64,000 nt of DNA. It comes from Candidatus Bilamarchaeaceae archaeon. GTDB lineage: Archaea; Micrarchaeota; Micrarchaeia; Anstonellales; Bilamarchaeaceae. This document shows, in pieces, positions 10,175-55,377 of the stretch; the stretch's first letter is position 1, and every line of letters begins with the position of its first letter. The stretch spans positions 930 to 64,929 of the forward strand of contig JAWCKZ010000003.1 of NCBI GenBank assembly GCA_038851325.1. The letters run 5' to 3'. A program made the translations under genes and the position numbers. Below the pieces are notes generated by a model, which did not search any database, was not told the origin of the DNA, and saw only the letters and a list, made by a program, of their open reading frames with translations.

Positions 10175-11278
10175 TCACTGCGCCCCAATCAAACTCAGAA
10201 CAGAAGCGATACGCGCCCTAAAATCCTCTGCCTTTTTGTAATAATCTTTGTAGCCCACCCATTCATTATCGTAATGAAAATCATATATATCGTCATCTGT
10301 TATAACAAGCCAGATATCCTCTCCGTAGTCACACTCTGTATCTGAACATATAGAAGGCGCGCCTGGTTCGCCTATTGTAAAATAATACTGCCCACTCTGT
10401 GGCTCAATTGCAGGTGCGCCTTTTAAATTTTGGATGTCGCTGCCATCTCTAATGGTAACATTGCTGAGAGCAACGACACAATGTGAGTTGTAGCATATTA
10501 TGTAAACATTCTGCTCCGATGTACCAAGAAGCGCCTTCTCCGCGTCTTTGTAAAACCAATTGTTATATATCTTGTAATTGCCAGAGCCAGGCACAGCCGC
10601 AACTACCTCTTGACTTGCTTCTCGTGCTTTTAGATAATTGTAAGCTGCCTTAAAGAAAAGCGCCCAATCCTCGCAATCCCCTCCTTTGTTTTCAGCAAAC
10701 TCGTTAATGGAAAGAAGGGTATCTTTAACCTCTGTCTTATAGAGCCAGTCCTCCTCAATCTTCATGATAACTGGAATGCACGGTAGATTTATTTCCTTGC
10801 CAGATGAGCACCGGTCTATAAGATATTGAATTCTCGGTGAGAGAATGCCTATGTCAGAATTTTCCTTGAACCACCCCATAGACTCATTTATTCGCTGTTG
10901 AAACACACTGAGCTCAACACTTAGGTTCTCCATCTCCTCTCTTGCCTTTCTAAGTTCGGTCGCCAATAGAGCGCTCTTCTCAGTGCAGTTCTCATAGAGT
11001 TCACGTTCTAGAGTAAGTTCGTCTGTGCAGCGCCCCAGTGAATTGTTTGTCTCGTTGAGTGTAATATAGAGTTCGTTAAGTTCGTTTCTCAAGGAAGCAG
11101 TCGTGGCCTTCTCTTCACCAAGCTTCTGCTCGGTTTCGATTAAACTTGTACTGAGGGCAGCGTTTTCTTCCTCAAGAGCGGCTGCGCGCTCGCGCCACCT
11201 TTCGCTTTCAAAATAGAAGTAGACACAGCATAAAAGGAGCAGCACAGAGAAGAATATGATAATACCTATTCGGTTCAT
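10175..11278 (-). CDS. Membrane-anchored coiled-coil protein with transglutaminase-like cysteine protease domain
   Basis: N-terminal TM helix, heptad stalk, GDCEDWA ... HCVVA ... IEPQ. Confidence 0.65.
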   Translation of the reverse strand: MNRIGIIIFFSVLLLLCCVYFYFESERWRERAAALEEENAALSTSLIETEQKLGEEKATTASLRNELNELYITLNETNNSLGRCTDELTLERELYENCTEKSALLATELRKAREEMENLSVELSVFQQRINESMGWFKENSDIGILSPRIQYLIDRCSSGKEINLPCIPVIMKIEEDWLYKTEVKDTLLSINEFAENKGGDCEDWALFFKAAYNYLKAREASQEVVAAVPGSGNYKIYNNWFYKDAEKALLGTSEQNVYIICYNSHCVVALSNVTIRDGSDIQNLKGAPAIEPQSGQYYFTIGEPGAPSICSDTECDYGEDIWLVITDDDIYDFHYDNEWVGYKDYYKKAEDFRARIASVLSLIGAQ

Positions 11279-11326
11279 GCAAGTTCATAGCAAGAAAAAA
11301 ATTAAAAGCGATGGATAATCGAAAGT

Positions 11327-11482
11327 GTTAGCAGCAGCGCGCTTTCCCGTGCAGAGCACAGTACTCGCAACGCCGTGAAGGAGCTTAATTCGGCCGCATT
11401 CCGTCGCCGCACATCGGCGCCGTCGCGCGTCTTCCGTGTTCGGAATGGGAACGGGTGTTTCCTCCTTCCTATGACCGCTAAC
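11327..11482 (-). rRNA. rrf: 5S rRNA with 42-nt insertion (11389-11430)
   Basis: GTTAGCGG/CTGCTAAC terminal stem, CATAGG, GAAACACCCGTTCCCATTCCGAACACGGAAG...TTAAG, loop E AGTAC/GAAA; 114 nt without the insert. Confidence 0.93.
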
Positions 11483-11504
11483 GTTATACTATATGACGAC
11501 ACCG

Positions 11505-11520
11505 TTTTTAAATCTTTTTC
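11505..11520 (-). promoter_or_regulatory. BRE/TATA promoter of the 5S rRNA gene
   Basis: Minus strand GAAAAAGATTTAAAAA about 25 nt upstream of the 5S 5' end. Confidence 0.6.
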
Positions 11521-11563
11521 GGCACACTTTTTGTGTGGAAGAATGGGTTGTGAGATAAACGTT

Positions 11564-12967
11564 ATGGAGGAAAAAATAGCAAACAAACACGCTCTCGTTA
11601 TCGGAGACGTAATGATTGACGAGTATCACTATTGTAGAACTGAGAGAAAAACACCTGAAGGACCTTTTCTTGTTTGGGACCTTGAGCGGCTTGAGAGAAG
11701 GCTCGGTGGAGCCGGAAATATAGCACACAACATAAGAACACTTGGTGCCAGGGTAACACTTGCTGGTGTCGCGCTTAATGACGAGATTGAACGCCTCGCG
11801 GCTGAGAATGGAATAGAATGCTTTTTCGCAAGAGACGGGAGAGAGACCACCATCAAAAGACGCTTCTTCGATATTGAAACAAAAGCTCTGCTCGCCAGAG
11901 AGGATATCGAAAGCAGGAAACCACTGCCAAAAGATGCTGCCGAATTCCTTGCGCGCCAACTAAAGAAAAACGATTATGATGTTATCGTGTTCTCAGATTA
12001 TGCCAAGGGTGTTTTTAACAGAGAGACCGTCGATGTGCTCACTAACATAAAAGGCAGGGTGCGAATTGCTGACACAAAACCACAAAATGCGGAGCTTTTT
12101 AAAGGAAAAGTCAATGTAATAAAGATGAATTTTAGAGAATTCAAACAGTTTATGGAAAGATATGGTGCGGTTATTACCAATACAGATACCGATATTATTA
12201 CTGCTGGGAGACTGGCAAGAGAGAGCTTAAAGACGGATCTTCTTATAACCCGCTCTGAACAGGGAATGACCTACATTGGCAGGGAGATCCACCATATGAA
12301 GGCAGAGGCAAAGGAGGTTGTAGACATAATCGGCGCTGGTGACATCGTTAGTGCGGTATTCGCTGCTGCGCTCGCATCAGGTTTAAGCCTTCCAAATGCG
12401 CTGCACGTAGCAAATGTAGCTGCCTCGATAAAGGTAACAAAACATGGCAGCAGCCTTGTTAATTTTGATGAAATAAAGAGCGCGATCTTGCGAGAAGAAG
12501 GAAAGATAGTAAAGGACAACGTTCTCAAAGAGATAGTAGCACGAAATCGAGCCGCAGGAAAAAAGATAGTATTTACGAATGGTTGTTTTGATGTTCTCCA
12601 TCACGGGCACATACATCTGTTGAAAAGAGCAAAAGAATTTGGAGATGTCTTGATTGTTGGGTTAAACAGCGACGATTCTGTAAGAAGAATCAAAGGGACA
12701 ACAAGGCCAAGAATACCAGAACATGGTAGGGCGGAAGTGCTGGCGGCCCTTCCTTTCATTGATTATATCGTCATATTTAACACAGACACGCCAGAGTATT
12801 TAATAGAGATTATAAAACCGGATGTGTATGTGAAGGGAAAGGATTATAAAATAGAGAAATTGCCAGAGGCAGCTGTGGTTGCACGATATGGAGGGCGGGT
12901 GGAGCTGATAGAACTGGTGACTGACGGCACAAAAAAGATTTCCTCGAGTGAGATAATACGTAAATAA
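11564..12967 (+). CDS. hldE: Bifunctional heptose-7-phosphate kinase / heptose-1-phosphate adenylyltransferase
   Basis: IGDVMIDEY, GGAGNIA, SDYAKG, DIIGAGD; FTNGCFDVLHHGH, GLNSDDSV, KGKDY. The ORF-track N-terminal extension overlaps the 5S gene. Confidence 0.92.
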   Translation: MEEKIANKHALVIGDVMIDEYHYCRTERKTPEGPFLVWDLERLERRLGGAGNIAHNIRTLGARVTLAGVALNDEIERLAAENGIECFFARDGRETTIKRRFFDIETKALLAREDIESRKPLPKDAAEFLARQLKKNDYDVIVFSDYAKGVFNRETVDVLTNIKGRVRIADTKPQNAELFKGKVNVIKMNFREFKQFMERYGAVITNTDTDIITAGRLARESLKTDLLITRSEQGMTYIGREIHHMKAEAKEVVDIIGAGDIVSAVFAAALASGLSLPNALHVANVAASIKVTKHGSSLVNFDEIKSAILREEGKIVKDNVLKEIVARNRAAGKKIVFTNGCFDVLHHGHIHLLKRAKEFGDVLIVGLNSDDSVRRIKGTTRPRIPEHGRAEVLAALPFIDYIVIFNTDTPEYLIEIIKPDVYVKGKDYKIEKLPEAAVVARYGGRVELIELVTDGTKKISSSEIIRK

Positions 12968-27149: not shown

Positions 27150-27242
27150 GGGCTCATAGCTCAATGCTTTCCATTCAGCGAGCAGTGGTAGAGTGCCCGC
27201 TTGGCGTGCGGGAGGCTGGGGGTTCAAATCCCCCTGAGTCCA
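27150..27242 (+). tRNA. tRNA-Ala(GGC) with 21-nt intron at 15/16 (27165-27185)
   Basis: GGGCTCA/TGAGTCC acceptor with G3:U70, CCCGC-TTGGCGT-GCGGG anticodon arm, GGGGG-TTCAAAT-CCCCC T arm. Confidence 0.92.
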
Positions 27243-30506: not shown

Positions 30507-31238
30507 TTATGCTTTCAGCTTGGTGGGAACAAGCCCACTGAGTTTCGCGGACAGTTCTACCTTCTTTGTACTTTCTTCGATCCACGGAGCCCAAGCTATA
30601 TAAATTTCCCCTTTTTTGGCGTCATAGCTTGCATAGAGAGGAAGTTTATCAGCTGGAATCGTTGCGTTCTCAAATTTGATTTTCTTTGTCTTCGGGACGT
30701 TCTCCGGTTTTATGCCAGATGGCGGTGTTATTCCTACTATTTCATTAAAATTTTTTACAAAAAGCTCTGCTATGCCCTCCCATCCCCCGCCTTTCTTAAG
30801 TTCCTCAGCCAAAAGCCGCCAGCCAGTACCCCTGTGCTCATCTGCCTTGGTTATCTCGGATGTCACACTACTGATTATTACATTTACTAACTTATCCACT
30901 GGTTCTTTTGGTTTGAATTGCTCCTTCACGTATCTTATAGCTTCTGGTGTGACAGATACCTTGGCAGTATGATCCCTTACGTCTATCTTGAAATAGGGAG
31001 GTGATTTGTCTATCAGTTGTTGCGCTTTTTTCATATCTCCAAGGTCTACTTTTTTCTGTATGTCCTCATGGAGTTTTTTTGCCTCATTCTGTAAATCTTC
31101 GATAGTCCTAGTTACTACTGTATTATACGCATTCGTTAGGATGTTCTTCAGCTTCTCAGGTTCAATATTGGCTAAATTACTTATGGGGATTTTTTTGGCC
31201 TCTTCCTTCTCAGCCGCTAATTCCGCTGGGCATACCAT
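30507..31238 (-). CDS. Hypothetical protein
   Basis: Long ORF; GGTGA RBS before MVCPAE. Confidence 0.6.
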   Translation of the reverse strand: MVCPAELAAEKEEAKKIPISNLANIEPEKLKNILTNAYNTVVTRTIEDLQNEAKKLHEDIQKKVDLGDMKKAQQLIDKSPPYFKIDVRDHTAKVSVTPEAIRYVKEQFKPKEPVDKLVNVIISSVTSEITKADEHRGTGWRLLAEELKKGGGWEGIAELFVKNFNEIVGITPPSGIKPENVPKTKKIKFENATIPADKLPLYASYDAKKGEIYIAWAPWIEESTKKVELSAKLSGLVPTKLKA

Positions 31239-55261: not shown

Positions 55262-55377
55262 TGGGCTCGCCCGGATTCGAACCGGGGATCTCCACCGTGT
55301 GAGGGTGGCGTCTTAACCACTTTCTGGATTTTGCCTTTTAAGTTACAGAAGACAAAAAGCCTCTCGACTACGAGCCC
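55262..55377 (-). tRNA. tRNA-Val(CAC) with 43-nt D-loop intron (about 55320-55362, position 15/16)
   Basis: GGGCTCG/CGAGCCC acceptor, CCACC-CTCACAC-GGTGG anticodon arm, CCCGG-TTCGAAT-CCGGG T arm. Confidence 0.92.

Follow-up and report, generated by a model that had tools for sequence, protein, structure and literature searches.

Archaeal BHB introns are known in tRNA, in 16S and 23S rRNA and in one mRNA family (cbf5); they are cut out by EndA and the exons are joined by RtcB. To our knowledge, 5S rRNA has so far been regarded as free of introns, and where a prokaryotic 5S gene was oversized, the excess was interpreted as an expansion segment. The introns of Thermoproteales 16S genes are few per gene, often hundreds of nucleotides long, and some of them contain homing-endonuclease ORFs. 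According to the available part of one report, the 16S introns of these thermophilic archaea are of the BHB type and vary among relatives (PMC4496867). Highly similar short BHB introns at different positions and in different genes of one genome were described in 2010, and the accessible portion of a review states that such introns imply a copy-and-paste spread limited by the need for a BHB motif (PMC4090602).

In the case of 5S rRNA, two inserts are covered by the available sections of a further source: the expansion segment of Halococcus morrhuae, 108 nt at positions 104.1-105, and a 46-nt insert of Thermoanaerobacterium at the helix III bulge, positions 52-53, which is sterically open (PMC7812874). 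The retention of both was shown or argued, and both are conserved within clades (PMC7812874, in part). The splicing endonuclease of ARMAN-2, an organism with heavily interrupted tRNA genes, cuts strict and relaxed BHB motifs, and the relaxed HBh' form is accepted by broad-specificity splicing endonucleases; the accessible text of the ARMAN-1/-2 work deals with tRNA substrates only and does not mention rRNA or 5S (PMC3239211).

The 5S rRNA gene described here was found in the window, i.e. the whole analysed stretch of 64,000 nucleotides from the genome G000. The source organism is a tiny hot-spring archaeon of Candidatus Micrarchaeota. The Rfam RF00001 match scored 39.2 bits with default filters, the gathering score being 38, and 49.0 bits with lax filters, where it spanned 11326-11482. 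The genome is 90.9% complete and consists of 18 contigs. The parts of the gene and its flanks are the following:

11327-11482, minus strand: 5S rRNA gene, 156 nt, the sole 5S match in the genome (RF00001 match and whole-genome search).
11431-11482, minus strand: 5' exon, RNA nt 1-52, ending with ...CACGGAAG (alignment with six congener 5S genes).
11389-11430, minus strand: putative intron, 42 nt, RNA nt 53-94, composed of A, a hairpin, GCCG and AA (congener alignment, BHB layout, family homology and model R1).
11327-11388, minus strand: 3' exon, RNA nt 95-156, beginning with UUAAGC (alignment with six congener 5S genes).
11505-11512, minus strand: TTTAAAAA box, 23-30 nt upstream of the 5S 5' end, TATA-like by position (read from the sequence).
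11295-11307, minus strand: T-rich run TTTTAATTTTTTT, about 20 nt past the 5S 3' end, terminator-like (read from the sequence).

The location of the TTTAAAAA box is what we take to be the usual archaeal TATA position. The boundaries of the insert were set by six intron-less 5S genes of the same genus, independently of any folding. These congener genes are 114-115 nt long and all read ...ACACGGAAGUUAAGC..., the insert being absent from 6 of 6 genomes. By comparison with them, the insert is exactly 42 nt between GGAAG and UUAAG and its position is unique: if the boundary is slid by one base either way, the sequence of the relatives is no longer reproduced. By cmscan, 41 nt were assigned to an insert in loop C, a placement that was rejected since the boundaries given by the congeners lie elsewhere. 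The insert separates the conserved GGAAG from UUAAG and splits the 2-bp G-U/A-C step of helix III (Rfam consensus). The predicted 114-nt product was identical to the 5S of the congener G003 at 107 of 114 positions and folded into the usual 5S shape. The sequence-only reading had placed a 42-nt insert at 11389-11430 of a 156-nt 5S gene and derived a normal 114-nt 5S from cuts after the second nucleotide of each bulge; the RF00001 match and the congener genes bore out the former, and the identity to G003 with the canonical fold the latter.

The occurrence of oversized 5S genes was determined in five overlapping surveys, in which a 5S match was obtained for 55/61, 92/99, 141/151, 145/151 and 148/151 genomes (G244, with a 5S of normal length, is counted in the last two tallies). 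Only three oversized genes, those of G000, G014 and G204, were detected across all of them; in the family-level survey (92/99) only G000 and G014 were oversized. One 5S copy is the norm in the surveyed group. The partial 5S matches G122:C20, G173:C10 and G302:C7 were rejected as candidates, being ordinary genes cut by contig ends and not genes with large inserts. A sensitive repeat search gave no 5S in G042, G191 and G298, the other genomes without a match being outside this repeat.

G014 and G204, two other Micrarchaeota genomes, have different 5S inserts at nearby sites. The 43-nt insert of G014 is 3-5 nt downstream of the G000 site and conforms partly to the BHB layout: h' of 9 bp and both bulges are in the exact BHB register, one of three possible registers, and the H helix is poor (2/4). 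Its similarity to the GGUUUUUAGG-type rRNA inserts was marginal, with a score of 39 vs the null maximum of 37. A motif scan of G014 resulted in 3 exact matches, two of them in 16S and 5S, at a high background. The 52-nt insert of G204 is located on the loop C side and has 3/4 H pairs, h' of 10 bp and a good register; no sequence relative of it was found among the 97 rRNA inserts described below, the G204 assembly being without a 16S to compare.

The presence of the insert in DNA was supported by contigs from four metagenome DNA runs of one study. A flank variant with 13 differences had none of them in 11327-11460, the contig-covered part of the 5S gene including the insert. Breaks of the public contigs lie at 11431-11466, in the conserved 5' portion of 5S, and under a 31-letter rule the junction 11430/11431 was bridged by no public contig, the best two reaching 30 letters beyond it. 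These two contigs, X1 record 1 and X4 record 25, run from the 3' exon through the intron and 30 nt into the 5' exon without gaps and with equal depth on both sides. No contig joining the exons across the insert was found among the contigs listed, which is weak evidence since contigs drop rare variants.

The junctions of the 5S insert were read as the following elements:

11433-11436, minus strand: H(a), CGGA in the exon, forming the 5' strand of the central BHB helix (motif reading; R1 model positions 3-6).
11391-11394, minus strand: H(b), intron GCCG, pairing with the exon by 3 Watson-Crick pairs and A.G (motif reading; the equivalent columns of alignment A1 covary with the exon).
11430-11432, minus strand: bulge B1, AGA, predicted 5' splice site after G52, the second bulge nucleotide (same register as in the rRNA copies).
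11388-11390, minus strand: bulge B2, AAU, predicted 3' splice site after A94, the second bulge nucleotide (same register as in the rRNA copies).
11426-11429, minus strand: h'(a), CGCG (motif reading; model R1).
11395-11398, minus strand: h'(b), UGCG (motif reading; model R1).
11405-11419, minus strand: apical hairpin CGCC-GAUGUGC-GGCG (family alignment and structure, cmsearch alignment).

All the pairings and bulges proposed by the sequence-only reading, i.e. exon CGGA with intron GCCG, AGA and AAU, and CGCG with UGCG, were present. On a point of naming, what it labelled the inner helix, CGCG/UGCG, is in BHB terms the flanking helix h', the central helix H being CGGA/GCCG; its apical stem CGCCG/CGGCG was found as well, but was read in the family alignment as the 4 bp CGCC/GGCG within it. 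The apical hairpin is flanked by tandem G.A/A.G and by a C-G, G-C step, matching the family core. The predicted cuts, after the second nucleotide of both 3-nt bulges, coincide with the congener-set boundaries. When the insert was shuffled with its boundaries kept fixed, the combination of 3/4 or more H pairs with 4 or more h' pairs was reached by 21/20000 mononucleotide and 58/20000 dinucleotide shuffles, a pass rate of 0.1-0.3%.

The 5S motif is of the relaxed HBh' form and not of the strict hBHBh' form: helix H has 3 Watson-Crick pairs and A.G instead of the 4 pairs of the strict motif, the outer helix h is all but missing with 1 pair, and h' has 4 bp. At 37 C, enforcing the BHB cost 3.8 kcal/mol relative to the minimum free energy fold (-55.6 vs -59.4). 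The formation of H needs helix III unfolded, and in the unconstrained fold loop C (CAUUCCG) prefers pairing with the complementary intron stretch CGGAAUG.

The 16S and 23S genes of the same genome are also enlarged, to 2068 and 3652 nt compared with 1491 and 2911 nt in G003, and the alignment with G003 revealed 14 inserts in 16S and 10 in 23S, mostly of 35-54 nt. These short rRNA inserts are too small for protein coding. One of the 16S inserts sits within a motif, between CAGCCGC and CGCGGUAA. A set of 97 rRNA inserts of 25-70 nt was collected from five genomes, of which 58 had well-defined junctions and 31 a unique register. Helix H was complete (4/4) in 27 of these 31 inserts, 3/4 in 3 and 0/4 in 1; with foreign introns placed in the exons, 4/4 was obtained in 3.4% and 3/4 in 21.5%. 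Since 3/4 occurs in only 3 of the 31 well-bounded rRNA copies, the 5S copy is at the weak end of the range.

Two 42-nt inserts in the G000 16S gene were identical to the 5S insert at 32/42 and 31/42 positions, with alignment scores of 54 and 51, respectively, the shuffle null having a maximum of 33, a mean of 23 and an sd of 3.5. The family alignment A1 was built from 10 rRNA copies of 3 genomes without any 5S sequence. In A1, 90.5% of the cells were paired, compensatory changes were detected in 11 of 15 pairs, and the covariation score was reached by 0/500 shuffles. The exon-intron helix was paired to 95%, and for 3 of its 4 pairs both partners had changed; the exon-pairing tetranucleotide of the rRNA inserts covaries with the exon. 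The covariance model R1, derived from A1 and therefore from 16S and 23S copies only, was matched by the 5S insert over its full length:

11385-11438, minus strand: full-length R1 match on the 5S insert, model positions 1-54 of 54, 31.8 bits, E 4.2e-7.

This was the single match in a search of 81 kb, in the exact register, and its score is in the lower part of the family range of 21-67 bits. The family core consists of h' of 4-5 bp, tandem G.A/A.G, two Watson-Crick pairs, a 4-bp apical stem and a 7-nt loop, and every one of these elements is present in the cmsearch alignment of the 5S insert. The 5S copy retains the tandem G.A core, has G-C where 7/10 members have A-U, and reads GAUGUGC in the apical loop vs GAUGUAU in the family; the one non-standard pair at the top of its h', C.A, is shared with G000_ssu351. 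A K-turn reading of the core was dropped, the tandem G.A pairs being without an adjacent 3-nt bulge (by eye, A1).

In the whole G000 genome, R1 matched 15 places at E up to 1; three of them lie in the D-arms of tRNA genes. With the limit set at E 1e-4, there were 13 matches in G000, 5, 3, 1, 1, 1 and 0 in the six other genomes of its genus, and 9 in G014, a member of a different genus. The match G000:C12:19172-19225 was considered as RNase P CR-I and rejected, the RNase P RNA being elsewhere and Rfam giving nothing there. The family is best read as lineage-specific mini-introns of about 42 nt, which would have spread into the 16S, 23S and tRNA genes of G000 as well.

Only 16 tRNA matches were obtained in G000, with the genome 91% complete. 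In the case of tRNA-Glu(UUC), removal of the family insert at its predicted boundaries together with two other inserts resulted in a perfect 75-nt cloverleaf, while only a defective call was obtained with the family insert kept. ARAGORN found no tRNA at the three tRNA loci when the family insert alone was removed, because further inserts remain there. When all BHB candidates were removed by brute force before ARAGORN was applied, many inconsistent calls resulted at these loci, and the hand-anchored tRNA-Glu test was preferred. The D-loop intron of the tRNA-Ala gene in the window is, as a side observation, also without helix h.

Both splicing enzymes are encoded in the genome. RtcB ligase was detected with 559 bits. 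EndA has 391 aa, with an N-terminal PF02778 domain and two catalytic-type PF01974 stretches, and matches PDB 4fz2_A over the full length (E 4.5e-130); a second PF01974 protein of the genome has 154 aa. PDB 4fz2, named there only as tRNA intron endonuclease, is presumably the ARMAN-2 enzyme. Judged from its sequence, the G000 EndA is predicted to be a three-unit epsilon2-type splicing endonuclease of broad specificity, with the same Pfam layout as the ARMAN-1/-2 enzymes and the end-to-end 4fz2_A match.

The 42-nt 5S insert is most likely a BHB intron spliced by the endonuclease, a copy from a mini-intron family that is spreading. Its anatomy and register, its membership of the family, its absence from congeners and the genes for both enzymes are observed; cleavage and ligation of the pre-5S RNA are inferred, because there are no RNA data for the organism. 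Five lines of evidence support the choice of the sequence-only reading for a BHB intron over a retained expansion segment. The insert is absent from all six congeners and from nearly all other surveyed 5S genes; it is homologous to 16S and 23S inserts of the same genome, as the R1 match indicates; the rRNA inserts obey the BHB rule far above the null; the same family occurs in tRNA genes, where its removal is needed for the cloverleaf; and the genome has the epsilon2-type EndA and RtcB.

According to the proposed mechanism, the gene would be transcribed to a precursor of 156 nt or more, in which the intron would fold as its own hairpin of h' (CGCG/UGCG), tandem G.A pairs and apical stem. The 3' tetranucleotide of the intron, GCCG, would pair with CGG(A) of the exon immediately before the 5' junction; the H pairing would transiently replace helix III, with the bulges AGA and AAU flanking the 4-position helix. 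The three-unit endonuclease might then cut after the second nucleotide of each bulge, RtcB would join the exons to the normal 114-nt 5S, helix III would reform, and the 42-nt intron would probably be circularised by RtcB.

Retention of the 42 nt in the mature 5S, where they would protrude from helix III/loop B at the central protuberance, is unlikely. It is favoured by the 46-nt insert retained at the helix III bulge of a bacterial 5S, among the least obstructed sites according to the available part of the source (PMC7812874), and the G000 insert also folds largely on itself, with no RNA evidence contradicting retention. However, expansion segments are expected there not to interrupt core motifs and not to be complementary to the core, and the 5S insert fails on both points (PMC7812874, in part): it splits GGAAG from UUAAG and the helix III step, its GCCG pairs with exon CGG, and CGGAAUG is complementary to loop C. 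An expansion segment also has no reason to keep an exon pairing which is in the BHB register and covaries across the family. The insert is not clade-shared, and retention is not credible for the family copies in the CAGCCGC-CGCGGUAA motif of 16S and in the tRNA D-arm. The sole archaeal 5S expansion site reported in the available sections is 104.1-105 (PMC7812874).

The evidence for the BHB applies equally to excision without religation, which would leave a 5S of two pieces, 52 and 62 nt, connected through the pairing of helices I and II, similar to rRNAs fragmented by the excision of intervening sequences. The fold indicates that these helices would hold the halves, and Stepanov and Fox name introns or intervening sequences as excision alternatives in the accessible part of their article (PMC7812874). 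The presence of RtcB and the tRNA copies of the same family, which must be ligated for a tRNA, make a two-piece 5S very unlikely. No archaeal case is known in which the EndA products stay unligated. The least likely of the explanations weighed is a disabled or silent 5S copy, with an uninterrupted second copy in the unassembled part of the genome, or, as a variant, a locus that is an assembly chimera. The incomplete assembly leaves room for it, as does the lack of a single public contig across 11430/11431 under the 31-letter rule. Against it, the exons are intact with 107/114 identity to the congener and the canonical fold, TATA-like and T-run signals are on the gene flanks, a single 5S copy is usual in the group, and the two contigs X1 record 1 and X4 record 25 are continuous with even depth; the absence of a listed contig joined across the insert adds weakly to this.

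Taking the 5S insert as a BHB intron, its resemblance to the known archaeal introns includes two 3-nt bulges, a 4-position exon-intron helix, the cut after the second bulge nucleotide, sporadic occurrence among close relatives, a location in conserved parts of stable RNAs, and EndA and RtcB encoded in the genome. The differences are the 5S host and the relaxed HBh' form with 3/4 H pairs and no outer h. Furthermore, the 5S intron, with its 42 nt, belongs to a multi-copy family and is neither a unique nor an ORF-bearing rRNA intron, and the 14 and 10 mostly 35-54-nt inserts of the G000 16S and 23S contrast with the introns of Thermoproteales 16S. With the Halococcus and Thermoanaerobacterium 5S it shares the oversized gene and one compact self-folding insert, that of Thermoanaerobacterium being of similar size and 1-2 nt from the G000 5S site. 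Unlike those, the G000 insert is missing in congeners, has BHB junctions and has homologues in tRNA and at 16S/23S core sites. The intron family of 2010 was reported in tRNA genes, as far as the available part of the review covers it (PMC4090602), whereas the G000 family crosses 16S, 23S, 5S and tRNA, has a conserved structured core and occurs in Micrarchaeota using an epsilon2 endonuclease. In the searched literature, supplements not covered, neither a 5S intron nor swarms of rRNA introns of about 42 nt were found described; for the 5S intron, this agrees with the sequence-only reading, which knew of none.

It is somewhat favoured, by a small degree only, that the 5S insert marks a landing site of an 'archaeal introner', non-autonomous and actively spreading. 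This would be a structured RNA of about 42 nt with a fixed core and a 4-nt exon-matching tail, copying itself into any stable-RNA gene that allows a BHB cleavable by EndA to form. The tail would match the exon just upstream of the landing, and the hosts would be tRNA, 16S, 23S, 5S and at least one unidentified RNA. The possible routes of its movement would be reverse splicing by EndA/RtcB followed by reverse transcription, or a route at the DNA level.

If the 5S is spliced, the range of the archaeal splicing endonuclease reaches the last rRNA species. The score of 39.2 bits near the gathering value of 38 is a warning for annotation, as such 5S genes can drop near or below thresholds, and the findings have a bearing on 16S-based surveys and on the tRNA annotation of DPANN archaea. 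The wider family pattern may outweigh the 5S case in importance. Because the family crosses RNA classes, varies between congeners and matches the exon by a tetranucleotide, the way in which BHB introns are gained, a long-standing question, becomes directly testable. If the introner reading is true, 5S would be the fourth archaeal RNA class with spliced introns, and the family would provide a natural system for the movement of BHB introns.

The Rfam 5S model matched window positions 11327-11482 (minus strand) at 39.2 bits with default filters, just over the gathering score of 38, and at 49.0 bits with lax filters. The gene length of 156 nt given in the sequence-only reading was thereby confirmed. 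No other 5S match was detected in the genome of the window (G000; 0.90 Mb, 18 contigs, 90.9% complete). The gene appears to be an independent transcription unit, since two elements read from the sequence flank it:

23-30 nt upstream of the 5S gene, minus strand: TTTAAAAA box
about 20 nt downstream of the 5S gene, minus strand: T-rich run

The GTG start of the listed 530-aa ORF (11375-12967, plus strand) lies within the opposite-strand 5S gene; an ATG seen in the sequence near 11564 is more likely the true start.

The 5S genes of all six same-genus genomes (6/6) were 114-115 nt long and read ...ACACGGAAGUUAAGC.... Against these congeners, the 42 nt previously placed at 11389-11430, between GGAAG and UUAAG, proved exact, with boundaries that cannot slide. 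The same alignment overruled the cmscan placement of a 41-nt insert in loop C. Excision gave the claimed normal 114-nt product, 107/114 identical to that of the intron-less congener G003 and with a normal 5S fold. In the Rfam consensus, helix III has a two-pair step at its base; the insert separates the G of this step from the U and thus lies in a stretch that is among the most conserved of archaeal 5S rRNA.

In the canonical bulge-helix-bulge (BHB) layout applied here, the central helix H pairs exon -6 to -3 with intron -6 to -3, the first bulge comprises exon -2, -1 and intron +1, the second intron -2, -1 and exon +1, and the intron-side helix h' extends from intron +2 to intron -7. The layout is validated by the tRNA-Ala of the window. 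Two tRNA features were located:

27150-27242, plus strand: tRNA-Ala(GGC), 93 nt, with a 21-nt D-loop insert (Rfam, 56.3 bits)
55269-55320, minus strand: partial tRNA match that scored below threshold (28.3 bits; positions 7-64 of the model)

The D-loop insert forms a textbook BHB (H = GCUC/GAGC, bulges AA/U and AG/U, h' of 3 bp, without the outer exon-side helix h), and its removal leaves 72 nt with a normal D-arm. ARAGORN called no tRNA gene over the window, tRNA-Ala(GGC) included. With introns allowed, it reported tRNA-Arg(UCU) with a 27-nt insert at C3:56191-56306, and the 55269-55320 locus is probably a further multi-intron tRNA gene.

The BHB pairings proposed for the 5S insert were reproduced with this layout: H is CGGA/GCCG (three Watson-Crick pairs plus A.G), the bulges are AG/A and AA/U, and h' is CGCG/UGCG. 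The insert has no real outer helix h. With the boundaries fixed, at least 3 H and at least 4 h' pairs occurred in 21/20000 mononucleotide and 58/20000 dinucleotide shuffles. The precursor fold with the BHB forced was 3.8 kcal/mol above the unconstrained fold at 37 C. On the minus strand, intron CGGAAUG (11399-11405) is perfectly complementary to CAUUCCG in loop C of the 5' exon (11442-11448), and the unconstrained fold pairs them. This could be a folding trap or a chaperone effect in the precursor, or chance, the latter because GAUGGAAUGCG is a family motif.

The 5S insert was 32/42 and 31/42 identical to two 16S inserts of equal length from the same genome, with alignment scores of 54 and 51 and a shuffle maximum of 33 (n=200). 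Ten 16S and 23S insert copies from three genomes, the 5S copy left out, were aligned (A1). Their common structure has H and an h' of 4-5 bp, then the tandem G.A/A.G with two Watson-Crick pairs, and an apical stem (4 bp) that closes a 7-nt loop. The paired cells amounted to 90.5%, compared with 26-41% in slid controls; both-side changes occurred in 11/15 pairs, and the observed covariation score was reached by 0/500 shuffles. The exon-intron helix was found to covary (95% paired, compensatory changes in 3/4 pairs). The family intron tail matches whichever exon hosts it. The covariance model from A1 (R1), searched against both strands of the window and of eight 5S loci (81 kb in total), gave a single match, at window 11385-11438 on the minus strand (31.8 bits, E 4.2e-7). 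The match spanned positions 1-54 of the model, and both the initial A of the intron and its terminal AA fell in register.

In the family core (A1 columns 15-19 and 35-39; window about 11400-11424, minus strand), the tandem G.A/A.G stands beside two Watson-Crick pairs. The 7-nt loop, GAUnUAU, is nearly invariant. As the core is conserved beyond the needs of a bare splicing substrate, it could represent an element for protein binding or for mobility.

The 16S and 23S genes of G000 span 2068 and 3652 nt, those of G003 1491 and 2911 nt, respectively:

C17:7002-9176: 16S gene of G000 (L041, L139)
C13:5569-9226: 23S gene of G000 (L040, L140)

By alignment, 14 inserts in 16S and 10 in 23S, mostly 35-54 nt, are absent from G003, and the 16S 3' end carries an additional 106 nt of insert. 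The 16S/23S counts were 10/9 in G006, 24/36 in G014 and 2/0 in G005; G001 had 2 inserts in 23S. In the set of 97 rRNA inserts of 25-70 nt, 58 had well-defined junctions (at least 26/28 positions matching the intron-less reference). H was paired 4/4 in 46 of these, 3/4 in 8 and at most 2/4 in 4; 46 introns started with A and 32 ended in AA. Because the best register had been picked where several fitted, the count was repeated on 31 single-register inserts, resulting in 4/4 in 27, 3/4 in 3 and 0/4 in 1. Exons paired with introns of other sites gave 4/4 in 3.4% and 3/4 in 21.5%. At least three sequence subfamilies were distinguished, with the motifs GAUGUAU, CAGGUUUUUAGGAAGG and GAGGGUUUUUAGGCACG. 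One 43-nt insert of G000 interrupts the 16S motif CAGCCGC/CGCGGUAA, which we take to be the universal 515-533 region; a working ribosome would hardly tolerate such an addition there.

Across the G000 genome, R1 matched 15 places at E ≤1: six in 16S, three in 23S, a weak one upstream of 23S, one in 5S, one in an unidentified RNA and three in tRNA D-arms (Glu-UUC, Glu-CUC and Gln-UUG, identities read by eye). The places outside rRNA were:

C8, about 30815-31055: tRNA-Glu(UUC) carrying inserts in the D-arm (42 nt), at 37/38 (77 nt) and in the T-loop (35 nt) (L135)
C4:65740-65793 and C10:3537-3590: similar D-arm copies
C12:19172-19225: insert of the R1 type, flanked by GGAGGAAA and AGGCC (28.8 bits; L138)

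Without its three inserts, the family one cut at the model boundaries, tRNA-Glu(UUC) folds into a cloverleaf of 75 nt whose acceptor stem is fully paired (7/7). It was undetected by Rfam and ARAGORN unless all three were taken out; with the family insert retained, ARAGORN called it only with a mismatched acceptor and D-arm. The C12 region had neither an Rfam match nor a long ORF, and RNase P RNA was excluded as the host, being located at C1:80486-80691. Among 37 relatives searched at E ≤1e-4, R1 was detected in 11 genomes, all of the window's family (G000 and 10/22 others), and in 0/14 genomes of other families. The copies numbered 13 in G000, 9 in G014, 5 in G001, 3 each in G006 and G019, and 0 in G005.

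Five overlapping surveys (G000-G328) gave 5S matches in 55/61, 92/99, 141/151, 145/151 and 148/151 genomes. Besides G000, two oversized 5S genes were detected. That of G014 (same family, different genus) is 158 nt long and carries an AU-rich insert of 43 nt, located 3-5 nt downstream from the site in G000 (h' of 9 bp, bulges AA/A and AA/G, H only 2/4). That of G204, from another family, is 168 nt long, and its insert of 52 nt lies on the side of loop C (H 3/4, h' of 10 bp, bulges AA/A and AA/C). In each of the three inserts, a single A precedes a hairpin, which is followed by six nucleotides with AA at their end; this asymmetry is as predicted by the BHB layout. G184, a congener of G204, has a normal 115-nt 5S. 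Its 16S gene (C49:3715-6087, L142) is 2373 nt long, about 900 nt beyond the model, so rRNA inserts occur in that more distant family too.

The 5S insert was present in contigs from four runs, all belonging to a single study; the runs in which this DNA occurs are hot-spring metagenomes. X1 record 1 and X4 record 25, from public metagenome contig sets, cover 11000-11460 gap-free. This interval takes in the 3' exon and the intron, together with 30 nt from the 5' exon. The 13 differences of the X4 variant all lie outside the portion of the 5S gene that its contig covers. No contig of the four-run set joined the exons across the insert position. Contigs break in 11431-11466 because this stretch is common to many other organisms (depth in thousands), and 11430/11431 is consequently bridged by no public contig under the 31-letter rule. 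That this 5S copy is silent or chimeric is considered very unlikely.

Retention of the 42 nt as an expansion segment is unlikely. The available part of Stepanov and Fox (PMC7812874) describes a retained 46-nt bacterial 5S insert at the helix III bulge, a single archaeal expansion site at 104.1-105 and the blocking of positions 57-58 by uL5, and states that excision is not excludable without experiments. As to the enzymes, a 391-aa ORF of G000 has an N-terminal domain of the splicing endonuclease EndA and two catalytic-type stretches, and matches PDB chain 4fz2_A over the whole length (E 4.5e-130). It fits the three-unit type of the ARMAN-1/-2 epsilon2 endonuclease, which, in the available part of its report (PMC3239211), has about 390 aa and cuts strict and relaxed BHB motifs in vitro. 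A 154-aa protein with a catalytic-type domain and the RNA ligase RtcB are additionally encoded; excision without exon ligation is regarded as very unlikely. The splicing interpretation is weakened by a central helix with only 3 of 4 pairs, by the lack of an outer helix, by competition from helix III and by the complete lack of RNA data. A BHB intron, as first proposed, remains the best-supported reading, and it is quite probable that the insert is spliced by EndA and RtcB, the splicing itself being inferred.

In the literature searched, neither an archaeal 5S intron nor swarms of about 42-nt rRNA introns were described. The nearest analogue is the transposition of tRNA introns reported in Thermoproteales, as covered by the review PMC4090602. 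Only 16 tRNA matches were detected in G000, at least 9 of them lengthened by inserts, indicating that the organism relies heavily on its splicing machinery.
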